From a virus, in IMG/VR virus record IMGVR_UViG_3300016725_000004: 64,000 nucleotides of DNA. One strand, written 5' to 3'. Below the pieces are notes generated by a model, which searched no databases, was not told the origin of the DNA, and worked only from the letters and a program-made list of their open reading frames with translations. Shown here piece after piece: positions 3,496 through 53,437 of this stretch. Position numbers and translations under genes: made by a program. Every line of letters starts with the position of its first letter. The first letter of the stretch is position 1.

Positions 3496-3975
3496 TTATC
3501 TAATATAATATTTACCAAAAATATCCTTAAAAATGATCGTAGTATGAATAGAATGTGGTATTAGAATACATCCTTTAGTTATATGCACATCATGCAATAT
3601 ATTTTCAATTATATCATCTAATGAGTTATTAAGCAATTGTTCAGTTGATTCTTTATGAGTTAGCCTATACAATTCAAATTTTTCTTTTAAATTGAAACTA
3701 TCTAACCCGCGTGCTTGTGGTTCCTTATATTCAAAATAATCAAATAAGTATCCAATAGCAGATAATTTTAGATGTTTCCAATAATTATCCATATTTTTAT
3801 GTGTATTCATTATATGTTGAATTTGTTCCCAAACTAATTTTGAAGTGGTACTAAAATCTTTAGACTCAGAATTTAACATTGAACATAATTCTTCAAAAGA
3901 AGAAGGCATTTTATCAAATTTAACTACAAAGCAAGTTGTTGAACTGTTAGATATAAATCCGTATCTAACCTTCAC
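3496..3975 (-). CDS. paralogous family A protein, copy 1 (159 aa)
   Basis: MKVRYGFISNSSTTCFVVKFD...; tandem paralog. Confidence 0.55.
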   Translation of the reverse strand: MKVRYGFISNSSTTCFVVKFDKMPSSFEELCSMLNSESKDFSTTSKLVWEQIQHIMNTHKNMDNYWKHLKLSAIGYLFDYFEYKEPQARGLDSFNLKEKFELYRLTHKESTEQLLNNSLDDIIENILHDVHITKGCILIPHSIHTTIIFKDIFGKYYIR

Positions 3976-4334
3976 ATTAGAATCCCAAATATCTCTTTAA
4001 ATTTGAAATAATTAACCATTATCAACAGAAAAGCAACAAGAATTGAATGCATGACTACCAAGGCAATGCTTTGATAAACAGTATCTTTATTCATCGACTC
4101 AAAGATAAAAGAAAAAGACACAGTTATACCTTGAATACAAAATTGAATTAGCATCAAATTAAGTGTAAGAAATAAAGGGAGTAAAAACACTTTATCTGAA
4201 CTTTTAACAAATTCTGGCAAGGTTTGATGTATAACTAAAAAGTCAGCAGGAACTATTAATAATTGATAGGTGTACATGCAAATACATACAGCTAAAAATG
4301 GAAAAATAGAACAAGTTCGAGCAAAACTTTTCAT
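3972..4334 (-). CDS. small membrane protein (120 aa)
   Basis: three hydrophobic helices; minus-strand ORF. Confidence 0.45.
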   Translation of the reverse strand: MKSFARTCSIFPFLAVCICMYTYQLLIVPADFLVIHQTLPEFVKSSDKVFLLPLFLTLNLMLIQFCIQGITVSFSFIFESMNKDTVYQSIALVVMHSILVAFLLIMVNYFKFKEIFGILM

Positions 4335-9259: not shown

Positions 9260-10324
9260 CTATCTAAATTTGAGAAAATAATTCCATAATGTATCTTCAT
9301 CCATATCACTGATTTGATCTGCGTATTTTCCATATCCAACATATTTTTTAATATTTTGTTTATCCAGAAATTCAAATTGTTTTATATCTTCTTCATTATT
9401 TAAGTAATTAATAAAATTCAAAAATAAATGTGTAGGCTTAATAAACTTTACTGCACGTTCATACTGTGTTCTTGAAAAAGTAAATACACGGCGAATACGT
9501 TTTGTTACAGTAGTTATTTCTGGTATTTGTTGAAGTTCATCCCAACTTAATTCTTTACTATCAGGATAAACGGGCCCACTATCACCTAATTCAATTCCAT
9601 TTTCATCTTTAGGATTACCAACTCGAATAGGGAAAGTTCTAATTACCATCATTACATTACCTAAGTCATTAGGATGAAGTCCCACATCACTAAGAACGGC
9701 AGAAGGAGTAACATCAATACTAGTACAGTGTGGGTAAGAATATCCATAATTAAGGCCAAGATCAAAACCTTGGCCTGTTTCAACTAAAATATTTAAGTTT
9801 TGAGAGATAAGAAATTGTAAGTATTCATCATTATATTTATACAATAAATGCTGTAATTCTGGTGTACCTTGAGCTAGAGGATTTTTCCTCATAATTTTAC
9901 TTGCTCTAGCTGCTCCTGCGCCAGATTGCGTACTAGCTATTTTAACTACACCACTTTTATCTTGTTCTGCTTCTTTATCTTGTTTAGTAACAACAGCAGC
10001 CCTAGGATGAATTAAAACTCTTTCATCATCAATATCAAATTCTTTCATTTCTTTAAACAAAACATCTATATCAATTACACTGCCTGCGCTAAGGAAAATT
10101 TGACATCTTTCTTGAATAATACCAGCTACGGGTAACATCTTAGTTACATATTTCTTCCCTTGATAATAAAAAGTATGACCAGCATTTGGAGATAGACGAC
10201 CAACTGCAACATGAACAGTATTATCTAATGCTATTTTATTAGCAATTAATCCTTTACCTGTGGATCCAAATTGACCATCAATAATCATATTACATTTACC
10301 AGATTTAACAAAATCCGATAGCAT
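9260..10324 (-). CDS. adenylosuccinate synthetase homologue, short archaeal/PurZ-like form (354 aa)
   Basis: P-loop IIDGQFGSTGKGLI (cf. PurA QWGDEGKGK), ASTQSGAGAA (cf. TTKRGIGP), TVTKRIRRVFTF (cf. TTGRRRRCGW); about 80 aa shorter than bacterial PurA; Asp of GDEGKGK replaced by Ser. Confidence 0.6.
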   Translation of the reverse strand: MLSDFVKSGKCNMIIDGQFGSTGKGLIANKIALDNTVHVAVGRLSPNAGHTFYYQGKKYVTKMLPVAGIIQERCQIFLSAGSVIDIDVLFKEMKEFDIDDERVLIHPRAAVVTKQDKEAEQDKSGVVKIASTQSGAGAARASKIMRKNPLAQGTPELQHLLYKYNDEYLQFLISQNLNILVETGQGFDLGLNYGYSYPHCTSIDVTPSAVLSDVGLHPNDLGNVMMVIRTFPIRVGNPKDENGIELGDSGPVYPDSKELSWDELQQIPEITTVTKRIRRVFTFSRTQYERAVKFIKPTHLFLNFINYLNNEEDIKQFEFLDKQNIKKYVGYGKYADQISDMDEDTLWNYFLKFR

Positions 10325-20180: not shown

Positions 20181-20538
20181 AAAATATGCTTCCTATATAA
20201 AGTACAAGAAGTATAACACTTATGTATGCAGTATAATATGAAAAGATACGGGTTTTTGATAAGGGTCTACAAAAATAATATTTAAAATAAAAGTATGATT
20301 TTTCATTTATTAATTTTACTAAACCCGGAAAGAATCGTGCTAAAAGAAAGTTAATATCTTTCTTTAATAAATTATAACAAAATTCTATAAGACTAATTGA
20401 TATTAAATAAATTATTGCTCCAACCATAGATTGGTAATAACAAATAAACAAATAAAATACTAGAACACATAAAGTCTGTTCTAGTATAAATAACAATCTT
20501 CTATATTTTATATAGCATATTTCGTCTTTGGATACCAA
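20143..20538 (-). CDS. small membrane protein (TTG start)
   Basis: hydrophobic ORF preceded by GGAGG RBS and promoter. Confidence 0.4.
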   Translation of the reverse strand: MVSKDEICYIKYRRLLFILEQTLCVLVFYLFICYYQSMVGAIIYLISISLIEFCYNLLKKDINFLLARFFPGLVKLINEKSYFYFKYYFCRPLSKTRIFSYYTAYISVILLVLYIGSIFYGWNSNLESLYE

Positions 20539-20570
20539 AATTTACCTCCAAAGTATAAGTTATTAACTGT

Positions 20571-20599
20571 AATATAGCATAATAAATGCTAAAAGTCAA
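20571..20599 (-). promoter_or_regulatory. sigma70-like promoter (TTGACT-N17-TATATT)
   Basis: minus-strand -35 at 20594-20599, -10 at 20571-20576. Confidence 0.4.
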
Positions 20600-20610
20600 A
20601 TAACACGAAT

Positions 20611-20645
20611 AGCCCCCACATGGTAATTTTAACCATGTGGGGGCT
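20611..20645 (-). terminator. stem-loop, candidate intrinsic terminator after nrdD operon
   Basis: 13-bp perfect stem agcccccacatgg/ccatgtgggggct, 9-nt loop, T-rich tail on minus strand. Confidence 0.4.
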
Positions 20646-20658
20646 ATGTTTAGTACAC

Positions 20659-20796
20659 CTATTTGTGCTTTACGCGGTCGTGTTCCTCGGCGCGTTTGGC
20701 ATTGTTGAATCTGTCAGTCGTACCTACCAAGTAGCCTGTGATGCGGCGTGTGCGTTGAAAACGCAACCCAGCACCAACAATTTCATTTTCTGGCAT
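20659..20796 (-). CDS. NrdD glycyl-radical domain peptide (45 aa, stand-alone)
   Basis: MPENEIVGAGLRFQRTRRITGYLVGTTDRFNNAKRAEEHDRVKHK. Matches class III RNR C-terminal radical motif (T4 NrdD: RRVCGYLGSPDARPFNAGKQEEVKRRVKH); AGGAGG RBS 7 nt upstream; GC-rich codons. Confidence 0.6.
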   Translation of the reverse strand: MPENEIVGAGLRFQRTRRITGYLVGTTDRFNNAKRAEEHDRVKHK

Positions 20797-20834
20797 AATT
20801 CCTCCTGAATGTTTTCGGTGTATATTTAAACTGG

Positions 20835-21347
20835 TTACATTTTTTTAGTAGTATTAGGAAGAACTATTTGGTGAGAAGTATCAGTATCATCTTCATATAT
20901 CAAAACTGAATCATTATCTGAAAGTTCTGAAATATGATCTTTAGTTAAATTAAGTTTTATACAGCAATTCTTACCTACTAGTGATTTTAAATACTCTGAA
21001 ATATTAATATCAGGAATATCTTGAATTAATATCTTATAAGGTATAGTTTTAAACAAATTAGAAATAGGATAAGACTGATTACTTAAATAAGTAATATAGC
21101 GTTTAACCAACGCGGATTCTTCTAAATCAGTAGGATTTTCAATAAAATTACCTAATAAATATCCAACTGGTATAGATTGAGTAGAACCAATAGTTAAGCT
21201 TAGTCCATCAGAAATAGTTGCTAAAAAATAATTAGAATAATCTATAGAAGGTGGAAGTTTAATTCTTTTAAGACTAGAGTCAGCTAATTGCAATGCACCA
21301 TCAAAATCAATATCTTCAAAACCGAAAGCAAATATTAGAAATCTCAT
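20835..21347 (-). CDS. paralogous family C protein (170 aa)
   Basis: MRFLIFAFGFEDIDFDGALQL... similar to adjacent MKFAILTFGFNFISFEAAFLL... Confidence 0.5.
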   Translation of the reverse strand: MRFLIFAFGFEDIDFDGALQLADSSLKRIKLPPSIDYSNYFLATISDGLSLTIGSTQSIPVGYLLGNFIENPTDLEESALVKRYITYLSNQSYPISNLFKTIPYKILIQDIPDINISEYLKSLVGKNCCIKLNLTKDHISELSDNDSVLIYEDDTDTSHQIVLPNTTKKM

Positions 21348-21811
21348 TGAGCATTATTCTCTTGAAGTTTCTGTTGCAATTCATCCGAAACTTTTAAACT
21401 AGCTATGATTGAATCTTCATTTTCACGCAATTTATAAATATATTCATCTAGTTCTTCATCTGTATCTGGAATTTCACCAATATTTATAATGTAAGGTTTA
21501 GAATCGAGTGCAATACCTAAAATATAATCATCTTGTTTCAAAAAGGAAACAATCTTTTGCTTTATTACTTCATCAGAATCATCTTCTCCAAAATTAACTT
21601 TGTTACCTTTTATATGACCACTAGGAATACCATCAAATAATGTATCCAAACCTTGTTGAAAATTATATTGAATATACTGCATAAGGGAAGTTTCTTCTTG
21701 TTCATGTTCATCAACTATTTCATCATAGGGCGGCATAATATTTACGCCAAGCAAAAATGCAGCTTCAAAAGATATAAAGTTGAAACCAAATGTCAGGATT
21801 GCAAATTTCAT
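21344..21811 (-). CDS. paralogous family C protein (155 aa)
   Basis: N-terminus similar to 20835-21347 product; acidic. Confidence 0.5.
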   Translation of the reverse strand: MKFAILTFGFNFISFEAAFLLGVNIMPPYDEIVDEHEQEETSLMQYIQYNFQQGLDTLFDGIPSGHIKGNKVNFGEDDSDEVIKQKIVSFLKQDDYILGIALDSKPYIINIGEIPDTDEELDEYIYKLRENEDSIIASLKVSDELQQKLQENNAQ

Positions 21812-21870
21812 GATATTTCCCCTCTTTGTTTGGGAGGAGGATTTTACCTCCTCCCATAAGTTATATGTTC

Positions 21871-22374
21871 TTATTCCGTTGTATTATCAGAATCATCATA
21901 GGAACCGATAAAATCGGGCATCCTATCTGATTCATCATTGATACAAGTAGTATCAAAAGGTTTCATCCAAAAAGATAATTCACCTTTTTCTTCAGCTTCT
22001 TTATATTTAGCGATACATAATTCTTCAGCACGTTCTAAAGCCATGCGTAAAGTTTGAATTTCTTTAATACTACGAAGAGTAAAACTGCAAGTAGTTTCAT
22101 CTCCAAAGTGATTAGTACAACTACTAAGAGTTATACCACCAAATTGAGCGCATTCTAATTTACCATAAATACAATCAATTCCATGAAAACCATTACTTCT
22201 AGCAGGCACAATAGAAATTTTAAATCTATCTTTTTCAACTTTGGTAGATATTAAATCTTTAACTCTATCAACAAAACAGTCACCATTAGGTGTAGTAACA
22301 GTTAATGCATGGCGTACATATTCTTTTTGTTCTTCTGTCATAGGAATAAAGTACATATTATGTATATGTTGCAT
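21871..22374 (-). CDS. hypothetical protein (167 aa)
   Basis: minus-strand ORF immediately downstream of nrdD. Confidence 0.5.
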   Translation of the reverse strand: MQHIHNMYFIPMTEEQKEYVRHALTVTTPNGDCFVDRVKDLISTKVEKDRFKISIVPARSNGFHGIDCIYGKLECAQFGGITLSSCTNHFGDETTCSFTLRSIKEIQTLRMALERAEELCIAKYKEAEEKGELSFWMKPFDTTCINDESDRMPDFIGSYDDSDNTTE

Positions 22375-22382
22375 TTTTCCTC

Positions 22383-24791
22383 CTAGATATTAAATTTATT
22401 ATTTACTTTATCAAATTCTTCAGCAATTTCATCATTTACACGATATTCTTTATTACAAGATAATGCCAAAGCAAGTTGAGCTTTGGTTATTCCTTCACCA
22501 TCTTTACGGCCACATCTTGGGCAAGAATCACCAATTACGCCAACATATCCACATAATGGATCCCTGTCTACTGGATGATTAATTGATCCATACCCAATAC
22601 CTGCATGTTTCATATATTGAATAATTTGTTCAAATGCTTCTGGATTCTCTGCTACGTCACCAGTTACTTCAACATATGAAATATGTCCACCATTTTCATA
22701 TGCATGATAGGGAGCTTCAATATCAATCTTATCAGTAATTGAAATATCATAATATACAGGAACATGATTACTATTTGTATAATAAGCCCTATCAGTTATA
22801 CCGGGAATAACACCAAACTTCTTTTTATCAATATCAACAAATCTACCAGAAAGACCTTCAGCAGGTGTACCAATCAAAGAAAAATTCAACTGTGTTTTCT
22901 GTGTTTGTTCATCACAGCGGTCACGTAGATGCTTTACAATTTTAAGACCTAATTCCTGTGCTTCCGCACTTTCACCATGATGTTTACCAATAAGAGCAAC
23001 TAAAGTTTCAGCTAATCCAATAAATCCAACAGTTAATGTACCATGCTTAATTATTTCTCTAACTTCATCTTCAGGCCCAAGCTTTTCACTGCCAATATAG
23101 ATATGTTGTCCCATAAGGAATGGCATATTTTTACATTTACGTTTAGCCTGTACTTCAAATCTATCCATAAGTTGAATAAAAACTAAATCCAACAATTTGT
23201 CAAGGGATTCAAAGAACTGGTCAATATTATGATTTGCAAGAATACCCAATCTAGGAAGGTTAATACTTGTAAAACTTAAATTACCTCTACCAGTAAAAAC
23301 TTCATAATCTTTATTCACATTACCAACAACACGAGTACGGCATCCCATCGTAGCGGATTCTGTTTCAGGATGACCCGGTACATAATATTGTTTATTAAAC
23401 GGTGCATCCAGAAAAGTAAAGTTAGGAAATAATCTACGACCGCTCACTTTACATGCAAGCTGAAATAGATCATAATTTATATCACCGGGAGTACCATTGA
23501 TTCCGTCCATAACTTTAAAAATATGGATTGGGAAAATAGCAGTTTCCCCATGTCCTAAACCAGCATCAAGAGCATAAAGTAAATTGCTAATAAGCATACG
23601 ACCTTCGGGAGTAGTACAAGTGCCGTAGTTTACACTACTAAATGGAACCTGACTTCCTGCGCGAGAATTTAATGTATTCATATTATGAACAAAAGATTCC
23701 ATAGCTTGATATGTTGATTTATTAGTACGTTTATGAGCAAGTTTGAATACCTTGCGTAAACTATATGCCATATCAAATTCTGTATCATGCACAACATATT
23801 TTTTAATATCACCACTTTTAGCTTGTTCTATATTTGGCATGGAACTTATATGGTCATAACAATCAACTAAACATTCTTCAGTTAATACTGAACCAGTATA
23901 TACTTTAAAAAAGTGCTTAATTTCTTTATAAAGGGGGAAATCTGCAATATCTTCATCTTCAACATAATAGAATGTTTCAATAATATCAAGAACATGTTTT
24001 GCAAAGGTCTTACTAATATATGGAGCTAAATCATAATCAAATTTTGCAATACTCTGACCACCAAACATATCATTCTGACTTGATTGAATAGCAATTGCTG
24101 CAAGAGCAGCAGCAGTTTGAATTGCAGAAGGTTCACGCAAATGTCCAAATCCAGTATTAAAACCATTTTCAAAAAGTTTTCCCAAATCAATTTGAACACA
24201 ATTCAAGCACAGAGGATAAAAATCTAAATCATGAATATGAATACTACCATCAAGATGAGCTTTACTTATTTCAGGACGAAGAAGCATTAAATGTGTAAAC
24301 CGCTTACTTGCTTCTGAACCATAGCGAAGCATAATACCCATACTACCATCACCATTAATATTTGCATTCTCACGCTTTAAATCATTATCTGCTGCATCAC
24401 GCAAAGTTAAATCAGCAATAGTAGTTATCAAATATGAATTTGTTTCTCTTGCTCTATCTCTAGTATAACGATAAGAAATATATTCCTGAGCTAATTCATT
24501 ATAACCAAAATCCATTAACATAAATTCTACTTCATGCTGAATAACATTAATAGTAATTGTAGATTCATTATAGCTGTTAAGCTTTTGTACAACCTGATCG
24601 GTAACACGCATTAAATCTTCATCAGCAATCAATTCAAAATTTTCATTTTTAGATTTTACTGCATCTTGAGCCAAACGAATAGCATGATAAATACGGTTAG
24701 CATCGAACTCTACAGTTTGATTGTCCCGTTTAATTACATTTGTGACCATATGGGTTCCTCCGATTTTTGGGTCAAAAAATAGCTGGTACAT
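22383..24791 (-). CDS. nrdD: anaerobic ribonucleoside-triphosphate reductase (class III RNR) lacking the glycyl-radical tail
   Basis: N-terminal ATP-cone (VIKRDNQTVEFDANRIYHAIRLA), long class III RNR body, C-terminal Cys cluster CGYVGVIGDSCPRCG; no R..GY radical motif at its end. Confidence 0.8.
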   Translation of the reverse strand: MYQLFFDPKIGGTHMVTNVIKRDNQTVEFDANRIYHAIRLAQDAVKSKNENFELIADEDLMRVTDQVVQKLNSYNESTITINVIQHEVEFMLMDFGYNELAQEYISYRYTRDRARETNSYLITTIADLTLRDAADNDLKRENANINGDGSMGIMLRYGSEASKRFTHLMLLRPEISKAHLDGSIHIHDLDFYPLCLNCVQIDLGKLFENGFNTGFGHLREPSAIQTAAALAAIAIQSSQNDMFGGQSIAKFDYDLAPYISKTFAKHVLDIIETFYYVEDEDIADFPLYKEIKHFFKVYTGSVLTEECLVDCYDHISSMPNIEQAKSGDIKKYVVHDTEFDMAYSLRKVFKLAHKRTNKSTYQAMESFVHNMNTLNSRAGSQVPFSSVNYGTCTTPEGRMLISNLLYALDAGLGHGETAIFPIHIFKVMDGINGTPGDINYDLFQLACKVSGRRLFPNFTFLDAPFNKQYYVPGHPETESATMGCRTRVVGNVNKDYEVFTGRGNLSFTSINLPRLGILANHNIDQFFESLDKLLDLVFIQLMDRFEVQAKRKCKNMPFLMGQHIYIGSEKLGPEDEVREIIKHGTLTVGFIGLAETLVALIGKHHGESAEAQELGLKIVKHLRDRCDEQTQKTQLNFSLIGTPAEGLSGRFVDIDKKKFGVIPGITDRAYYTNSNHVPVYYDISITDKIDIEAPYHAYENGGHISYVEVTGDVAENPEAFEQIIQYMKHAGIGYGSINHPVDRDPLCGYVGVIGDSCPRCGRKDGEGITKAQLALALSCNKEYRVNDEIAEEFDKVNNKFNI

Positions 24792-24830
24792 TTGATTGTA
24801 CCAGCTATTTTTTTATAAGTCGAGTAATAT

Positions 24831-53361: not shown

Positions 53362-53437
53362 TGGTGGGCCTGTCCAGATTCGAACTGGAAGTCCAAGACT
53401 TAGAAGGTCTTTGCATTATCCGTTATGCTACAGGCCC
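53362..53437 (-). tRNA. tRNA-Arg (anticodon UCU)
   Basis: 76-nt cloverleaf GGGCCTG-TA-GCAT-AACGGATA-ATGC-A-AAGAC-CTTCTAA-GTCTT-GGACT-TCCAG-TTCGAAT-CTGGA-CAGGCCC-A-CCA; all four stems perfectly paired, U33, TTCGAAT T-loop, encoded CCA. Confidence 0.85.

Follow-up and report, generated by a model that had tools for sequence, protein, structure and literature searches.

The viral record IMGVR_UViG_3300016725_000004 of IMG/VR, of which a stretch of 64,000 nucleotides (the window) was analysed, probably encodes a natural two-subunit class III ribonucleotide reductase (RNR), consisting of a 788-aa NrdD body that lacks the radical glycine and a separate 45-aa peptide, here called the mini, that bears it. 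As far as sequence comparison can tell, this pair is the phage representative, dispersed and with no activase gene in the window, of a large family of two-gene NrdDs. The elements concerned are the following.

22383-24749, minus strand: nrdD body, 788 aa from its likely start, with NRDD, NF005497 and 8P23_A matches; it contains an ATP-cone, the catalytic barrel, the finger-loop cysteine (MGCRTR) and zinc-ribbon cysteines, without the radical glycine.
24456-24740, minus strand: ATP-cone (PF03477, E 5e-15), residues 18-112 in the numbering of the 802-aa open reading frame (ORF).
22509-22553, minus strand: cysteine cluster CGYVGVIGDSCPRCG, a zinc-ribbon remnant with three cysteines, taken from the translation.
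22386-22508, minus strand: C-terminal extension of the body, or pseudo-tail (RKDGEGITKAQLALALSCNKEYRVNDEIAEEFDKVNNKFNI), a putative degenerate homologue of the glycyl-radical tail, without radical glycine.
24774-24814, minus strand: terminator-like hairpin of the upstream gene, read from the sequence, in which the nrdD ORF has its first in-frame ATG.
20801-20806, minus strand: AGGAGG ribosome-binding site (RBS) of the mini, 4 nt before its ATG, read from the sequence.
20659-20796, minus strand: mini-ORF, 45 aa, MPENEIVGAGLRFQRTRRITGYLVGTTDRFNNAKRAEEHDRVKHK, a predicted autonomous glycyl-radical subunit with NF005497, NRDD and 8P23_A matches.
20734-20736, minus strand: codon of the predicted radical glycine, G21 of the mini.
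20659-20754, minus strand: GC-rich core of the mini, codons 15-45, with a GC content at third codon positions (GC3) of ~0.65, against ~0.21 for codons 1-14.
20609-20647, minus strand: intrinsic terminator hairpin closing the nrdD-to-mini block, with a 16-bp stem, 9 GC pairs and a T-rich tail.

The body matches positions 1-531 of the 562 in Pfam NRDD (PF13597, E 2e-177) and positions 1-718 of the 746 in NCBIfam NF005497 (1000.6 bits for a cut-off of 764), and aligns to residues 4-706 of 8P23_A, a solved NrdD of 743 aa. Its finger loop (M468-R473) is invariant among 32 aligned homologues and is matched in 8P23_A too. With its ATP-cone, its class III body and the lack of an RxxGY motif in its tail, where the NF005497 match ends at 718/746, this protein is as the initial annotation of the window had described it. 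The mini supplies what is missing: it matches positions 711-744 of NF005497 (E 8e-12), that is, the missing last ~32 residues including RRITGY, and positions 533-562 of NRDD (31.3 bits for a cut-off of 26.2), and aligns to residues 708-738 of 8P23_A (E 3e-8) with the glycine of RITGY matched. The NRDD matches of the two pieces are complementary, and on 8P23 body (4-706) and mini (708-738) abut, with neither overlap nor gap. The earlier identification of this 45-aa ORF and its AGGAGG site as the missing NrdD C-terminus is thereby borne out; a match to the Pfam Gly_radical family (PF01228) was not found at E up to 1, the peptide being recognized by NRDD models only. The mini also fits its family consensus (...VGxG(V/L)xF(E/Q)R(I/T)RRITGYLVGT..DRVKH, with its own Shine-Dalgarno (SD) motif and ATG), in which 27 alignment columns are invariant among 15 minis.

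Two details of the body differ from what had been annotated. The nrdD ORF is indeed open from 22383 up to an ATG at 24791 (802 aa), but its start is most likely the ATG at 24749, giving 788 aa, because the upstream gene's hairpin takes in ATG 24791, a GGAGGA sequence (24756-24761) is found 6 nt before ATG 24749, and homologue alignments begin there. The hairpin at 24774-24814 carries a T-run and terminates an upstream 434-aa gene. The C-terminal cysteine cluster is present, but with three cysteines (C...CPRC) rather than the four of the NrdD zinc ribbon. This three-cysteine pattern (DRDPxCGY...CPxCG) is clade-wide, in intact and split members alike.

Both pieces are maintained by selection in this phage lineage. 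A diverged sister phage is represented by contigs from four other samples (L068-L071) and has the same gene order as the window (body C-terminus, o163, o154, o171, mini). Comparison with L068 gives ratios of non-synonymous to synonymous substitution rates (dN/dS) of 0.06 for the body C-terminus and 0.04 for the mini (17.5 synonymous and 4.5 non-synonymous differences), indicating strong purifying selection. The single strong terminator lies 3' of the mini, so that body and mini share one terminator-bounded block; the hairpin after the mini had been noticed before, and its stem shows compensatory changes in L068.

The same break recurs in other phages and in bacteria, and is a frequent one among bacteria of the gut and the phages that infect them. 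A search with the body, followed by tblastn and ORF analysis, gave 52 related viral loci, of which 24-25 are split at the same point, between zinc ribbon and glycine loop; this takes up the earlier proposal to look for intact and split relatives. The mini lies immediately 3' of the body in L005 and 13 similar viral contigs, 0.6-0.8 kb 3' of it in L047, L048 and L050, 0.3-1.1 kb downstream, joined to the end of a further small domain, in L008 and L009, and directly 5' of the body in L011. Searching a protein database with the mini yielded 1777 matches, the best 120 of which are all stand-alone proteins of 45-77 aa, and a profile search of 1.84 billion representatives yielded 2541, the best 150 of which are all 52-196 aa long; short stand-alone tails form at least 150 distinct clusters at 50% identity. 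The window mini is 93% identical to P0001 and 80% identical to the bacterial P0027, for which the collection lists 7059 index blocks, with Hominiventricola aquisgranensis as one of several attributions. For two of these proteins, exact look-ups led to bacterial chromosomes, on contigs of up to 1.4 Mb, where tail-less nrdD (766-771 aa) shares an operon with a mini (52-55 aa) and with nrdG.

Among GTDB species representatives, the 80 loci most similar to a split-type mini comprise 72 split loci, 7 intact ones and 1 at a contig edge. The body is directly upstream in 57 of the 72 (median gap 60 nt), with nrdG directly downstream in 50 of those 57. Among the taxa represented are Lachnospiraceae, Oscillospiraceae, Desulfovibrio, Peptococcaceae, Selenomonadales, Treponemataceae and low-GC Bacilli. 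A census starting from the body, and independent of the mini ranking, found no tail in 78 of the 120 best body homologues. Across 61 distinct loci the frame of the mini, counted from that of the body, is 0 in 22 cases, 1 in 18 and 2 in 21, an SD-like motif precedes its in-frame ATG in all 61, and the body ends in TAA (47), TAG (9) or TGA (5). Given this spread of frames and the SD and ATG of their own, the minis must be real separate genes, and read-through, frameshifting and sequencing error can be considered excluded as general explanations from these gene structures.

A neighbour-joining tree built on the barrel region places the window body with L050, beside a large and mostly split bacterial clade in which a few intact NrdD members are nested. 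These intact members may be re-fusions, or fission may have occurred more than once, a neighbour-joining tree being compatible with either. What the census shows is a large clade of tail-less bodies, each with its own mini, in Clostridia, Desulfovibrionaceae and other anaerobes as well as phages. Since so many bacteria and phages have the same break with the two genes ~0-200 nt apart, the comparison also shows that this phage did not create the split but inherited an enzyme already in two pieces. The window departs from the typical arrangement, where nrdG comes next, by its 1.6-kb gap and lack of nrdG; loosened arrangements are also found in phages L008, L011, L047 and L050.

The origin of the split may be recorded in the body itself. 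Tail-less bodies continue past the last cysteine as CGR-x-(D/E)-G-E-(G/A)-(V/I), a glycine-less extension, and minis begin ...V-G-x-G-(V/L)-x-F-(E/Q)-R-(I/T)-R-R-I-T-G-Y. The window tail (CGRKDGEGITKAQL...) aligns with those of 96 other tail-less bodies. A profile of 39 distinct long-type body tails, the window's included, aligned end to end with the mini profile over 47 columns (hhalign probability 82%, E 1.1e-5) and, at E 1.6e-7, with intact NrdD tails. The real tail-versus-mini score was 28.6, which no column shuffle out of 200 attained (mean 8.9, sd 2.1, maximum 18.1), and E was 3e-4 after removal of the shared GEGV motif. A first duplication test, in global mode with all tail types mixed, was not significant (E 0.16), significance being reached only after the long-type tails were separated out. 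Taken alone, the window tail aligns only DEIAEEFDKVN to AKRAEEHDRVK, and for this phage the homology is therefore drawn from membership of the family.

At the family level, these alignments show the C-terminal extension of the body, initially annotated as non-homologous, to be a decayed duplicate of the radical tail, and they suggest that behind the fission lay an old duplication, in tandem, of the 3' part of the gene. Copy 1, still attached to the body, would have lost the radical glycine, and the distal copy 2 would have acquired its own SD and ATG. In this phage lineage, three unrelated ORFs would have been inserted at the junction, and the mini core, with its terminator, would have been replaced.

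The three ORFs occupying the 1.6 kb between body and mini are as follows, with values from the comparison with L068.

21871-22374, minus strand: orf167, function unassigned, 72% aa identity, dN/dS 0.26.
21344-21811, minus strand: orf155, function unassigned, paralogue of orf170, 93% aa identity, dN/dS 0.04.
20835-21347, minus strand: orf170, function unassigned, paralogue of orf155, 61% aa identity, dN/dS 0.31.

None of them has a Pfam, PHROG or NCBIfam match. The paralogy of two of the three, which had been recognized from the sequence, is distant (orf170 and orf155 share 25% identity, BLASTP E 2e-8). Phage L050 has two different 93-aa ORFs at the junction and keeps nrdG after the mini, and the junction between body and mini may thus have later served as an insertion site in phages. 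Of the earlier proposal that an insertion split the gene and left the tail working in trans, the second half is retained, the mini being a separate gene under selection; insertion as the cause is not, the same break occurring elsewhere without one. As a separate observation, orf155 is as tightly constrained as the reductase, while its paralogue orf170 evolves fast. A hairpin (GGGAGGAGG/CCTCCTCCC) lies at 21821-21850, between orf167 and orf155, without a T-run on the coding strand; it overlaps the region just 5' of the orf155 start and could be regulatory or RBS-sequestering.

The mini is compositionally foreign to its surroundings, as had been pointed out initially: its GC content is 0.50 and its GC3 0.52, against 0.33 and 0.17 for the body and a GC content of 0.30 for the window. 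It uses CGC, CAC, GAC and GCC where the body prefers CGT/AGA, CAT, GAT and GCT/GCA. The difference in GC3 between mini and body is +0.35 in the window and +0.29 in L068, which is the maximum of a set of 68 other split loci averaging -0.04 +/- 0.09 and containing genomes that encode the same peptide at a GC3 of 0.05-0.2; the values for 11 other split phage loci lie between -0.15 and +0.14. The GC-rich core is thus peculiar to this phage lineage. The excess is limited to codons 15-45 and the terminator, codons 1-14 being AT-rich and phage-like, and because of this mosaic of AT-rich start and GC-rich core we suggest that core and terminator were replaced from a higher-GC donor before L068 and the window phage diverged. 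The similarity ranks of bodies and minis are uncorrelated (Spearman 0.12, p 0.36), in a comparison of low resolution.

If the enzyme is active, the mini must act in trans, and it would be an obligate subunit rather than a spare, because the body has no radical glycine. The mini contains the loop with RRITGY and the C-terminal helix, which in one-piece NrdD project into the barrel and bear the glycyl radical. We infer that an NrdG activase would form the radical on G21 of the mini by abstracting a hydrogen, that the mini would dock non-covalently in the barrel at the site taken by residues 708-738 of one-piece NrdD, and that the radical would then pass from the mini to the finger-loop cysteine (MGCRTR). 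The NrdG involved would probably be that of the host, or encoded beyond the window. It is plausible that the phage relies on the activase of its host, a situation that a host-like radical peptide would suit.

Several observations weigh against such a two-subunit enzyme, or against parts of the history proposed for it. Activation by NrdG and productive docking of a free ~50-aa peptide are deduced from sequence. As the initial annotation had stated, no NrdG was detected in the 64-kb window (tblastn with three NrdG queries, best E 0.8), and the only CxxxCxxC ORF in it has no radical-SAM match; nrdG is moreover present within 6 kb in only 3 of the ~25 split phage loci. The activase partner is therefore assumed. 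An AlphaFold2 model of the body alone (mean predicted local distance difference test score, pLDDT, of 73.5) leaves the C-terminal tail unplaced, with a low-confidence helix at 756-780 (pLDDT <50 in both cases). The window tail taken alone is not significantly similar to the mini profile (E 0.084). The split fraction among the 80 GTDB loci is inflated by their ranking by similarity to a split-type mini. Finally, the GC-rich core could not be traced to a donor, the closest match among bacterial tails having 83% nucleotide identity over 96 nt, and codon selection may be an alternative cause of the high GC content.

A more elaborate form of the two-subunit arrangement is possible, though we regard it as rather doubtful: the radical glycine would sit, like a replaceable fuse, on a cheap exchangeable peptide of ~50 aa that phages could swap or carry alone. 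The body would keep its dead tail duplicate as a placeholder, and NrdG would activate the free peptide off the enzyme, the peptide then displacing the placeholder. Oxygen would destroy only this 5-kDa peptide, which alone would need replacing. A phage could keep its own body and swap in a host-matched peptide for recognition by the host activase, as in the window, or the peptide alone could boost the host enzyme, as in Desulfovibrionaceae prophages.

It seems unlikely, by comparison, that the mini is no dedicated partner of the phage body but a GrcA-like spare part or hijacking module for the host NrdD, providing extra radical subunits for split host bodies or repairing oxygen-damaged host enzyme. 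Such a role would be in keeping with the composition of the mini core, which is host-like and unlike the phage body, with the lack of a phage nrdG in the window, and with orphan minis (no body within 4 kb) in 15 of the 72 split GTDB loci, several of the Desulfovibrionaceae orphans lying in prophage-like DNA (replication initiator, RusA, phrog_2045). The phage body, however, has no radical glycine yet evolves at a dN/dS of 0.06, and therefore needs a partner of this kind, and body and mini share one terminator-bounded block whose order is kept in the sister phage. The two roles are not mutually exclusive, a spare part being compatible with a dedicated partner. The initial suggestion of a captured, host-like spare part hence stands as regards foreign composition and suits the true orphan minis found elsewhere, some of them in Desulfovibrionaceae prophage-like regions, while its analogy with GrcA is partial only, the body here being without a radical glycine of its own.

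That both pieces are non-functional remnants of a decaying nrdD is very improbable. The body without its essential glycine, the 1.6 kb between the pieces and the lack of an activase in the window could be read in that way, but dN/dS is 0.04-0.06 for both pieces at a dS of 0.4-1.1, every profile position of the catalytic barrel is kept, the mini has a strong RBS and the terminator its compensatory changes, and the architecture is conserved in hundreds of bacterial and phage lineages.

Restoration of a single polypeptide by RNA or protein splicing, read-through or frameshifting is hardly more credible. Group I introns and inteins are known in phage nrdD genes (PMC3653736), and some bacterial minis are in the frame of the body after a single stop. 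No Rfam intron was found in the window at gathering threshold, nor in 20300-22700 at E up to 10, and body, mini and the three ORFs contain no intein or homing-endonuclease domain in Pfam or PHROGs. A split intein at the break was rejected on this ground and because the body tail is only ~40 aa long; read-through, selenocysteine and frameshifting were rejected on the even spread of frames among loci and the predominance of TAA stops. The intervening ORFs are, besides, conserved genes under selection, each mini has its own SD and ATG, and among other phages L011 has its mini 5' of the body and L008 and L009 have theirs joined to a further domain.

Misassembly or sequencing error has next to no probability, for although the window comes from a metagenome assembly and one other assembly breaks inside orf170, contigs L056 and L057 of JGI 2166559024 carry an identical body and mini, each spanning one side of the block, and with the sister phage in four further samples at least 5 independent assemblies have the same gene order. 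Near-identical DNA was not found in the phage collection searched.

In the textbook view a glycyl radical enzyme is one chain, and its C-terminal domain has to leave the barrel in order to reach the activase. The canonical one-piece NrdD with NrdG (T4 NrdD, PDB 1H78/1H79; the 743-aa NrdD of 8P23) has the same parts in the same order as the window pair, namely ATP-cone, barrel, finger-loop cysteine, zinc-ribbon region, RxxGY and C-terminal helix. In the window, unlike the canonical enzyme, the radical loop and helix are on a 45-aa chain of their own, 1.6 kb away from a body with a glycine-less pseudo-tail, and there is no nearby nrdG.

The closest functional parallel to draw on is GrcA (YfiD) of E. 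coli, likewise a small stand-alone homologue of a C-terminal radical domain, for which activation and action in trans are presumed. Phage T4 Y06I is the precedent for a phage-encoded autonomous glycyl-radical cofactor, again for pyruvate formate-lyase. GrcA, however, has ~127 aa, belongs to the pyruvate formate-lyase family and, once oxygen has cleaved it, rescues an enzyme equipped with a radical domain of its own, whereas the window mini is of NrdD type, consists of loop and helix only, has a partner without radical glycine and does not match PF01228. According to a June 2026 review, formate-lyases alone among the classes of glycyl radical enzymes have known spare-part proteins (PMC13450708).

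RNR catalytic subunits encoded in two genes are known from other classes. The class II NrdJa/NrdJb of Pseudomonas aeruginosa and of Thermus phage phiYS40 is a two-gene RNR whose reassembly is thought to be splicing-free (PMC9669993), and the same is thought of NrdA of Aeromonas phage Aeh1, split by the homing endonuclease mobE (PMC3653736). These resemble the window in the division of the catalytic subunit but differ in RNR class and break point, and the radical-bearing element is not parted from the barrel in them; in addition, a homing endonuclease caused the Aeh1 split, and none is detectable at the window break. Phage nrdD genes in pieces have been catalogued as well (the I-TevII intron of T4, Lactococcus phage 949, Clostridium phage c-st and Aeromonas phage phiAS4; PMC3653736). 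They represent self-splicing interruptions inside the barrel or unexplained recent breaks, unlike the window break, which has no intron or intein signal and a conserved position common to many bacteria. No description of an NrdD with a separately encoded radical tail was found in the full-text literature searched, though one may exist elsewhere, and the two-gene NrdD family is apparently undescribed.

The split clade, with the radical loop on its own peptide and a dead copy on the body, would offer a ready-made system for studying activase recognition, radical delivery and cheap repair, and a two-gene NrdD would carry the idea of an autonomous glycyl radical cofactor beyond pyruvate formate-lyase. 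For phages, such a division would be a modular way of connecting a viral nucleotide-supply enzyme to the activation machinery of the host. Annotation is also concerned: minis are labelled only 'anaerobic ribonucleoside-triphosphate reductase' or 'hypothetical protein' in databases, which affects thousands of ORFs of 45-80 aa, and tail-less bodies are called complete NrdD.

Some further observations were made on radical tails and bodies outside the window. In Desulfovibrionaceae, the minis at L115 (~3806-4147), L112 (~3920-4135) and L100 (~3872-4120) are orphans, neither a body nor nrdG being present within 4 kb. Their prophage-like surroundings include a replication initiator and RusA (D. falkowii), phrog_2045 (E 6e-102) and a phage methyltransferase-like gene, and in these phages the radical peptide apparently travels on its own. 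A second class of stand-alone radical tails, of ~90-130 aa, has a conserved N-terminal domain of ~60 aa (..VNVTGGxLxQEEIxAYIxRAKxKxGREP..VDGDxVxLSYDF..) fused to FQRIRRITGYL...; its members are L132 (3818-4123), L096, L108, L114, L123, L126, L129 and L151, and L008, L009 and L011 in phages. They are often found in unrelated chromosomal contexts, such as beside rpe and a GyrI-like gene, or by rubrerythrin in R. flavefaciens FD-1.

The tail-less body at L046 (7422-9015) is further interrupted, with a 1-kb gap in the match, and P0275, P0277 and P0377 are tail-less body homologues with intein-type Pfam domains (PF14890, PF14528), so that the tail split and invasion by inteins are found together. 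At L013 (8128-8355), an otherwise intact phage NrdD has a frame shift in the last ~11 residues of its radical tail (NNA|SKPRN...), representing either a sequencing error or a decaying tail.

Elsewhere in the window, positions 9260-10324 (minus strand) encode a 354-aa protein of the adenylosuccinate synthetase family (PF00709, E 7e-30; phrog_1211, E 5e-64). Phrog_1211 is a PurZ-type phage family, and this phage might therefore make DNA containing 2-aminoadenine (Z). A single tRNA-Arg(TCT) gene is located at 53362-53437 (minus strand). The longest contig with the exact mini is 233 kb in length, and the phage is therefore a jumbo phage.

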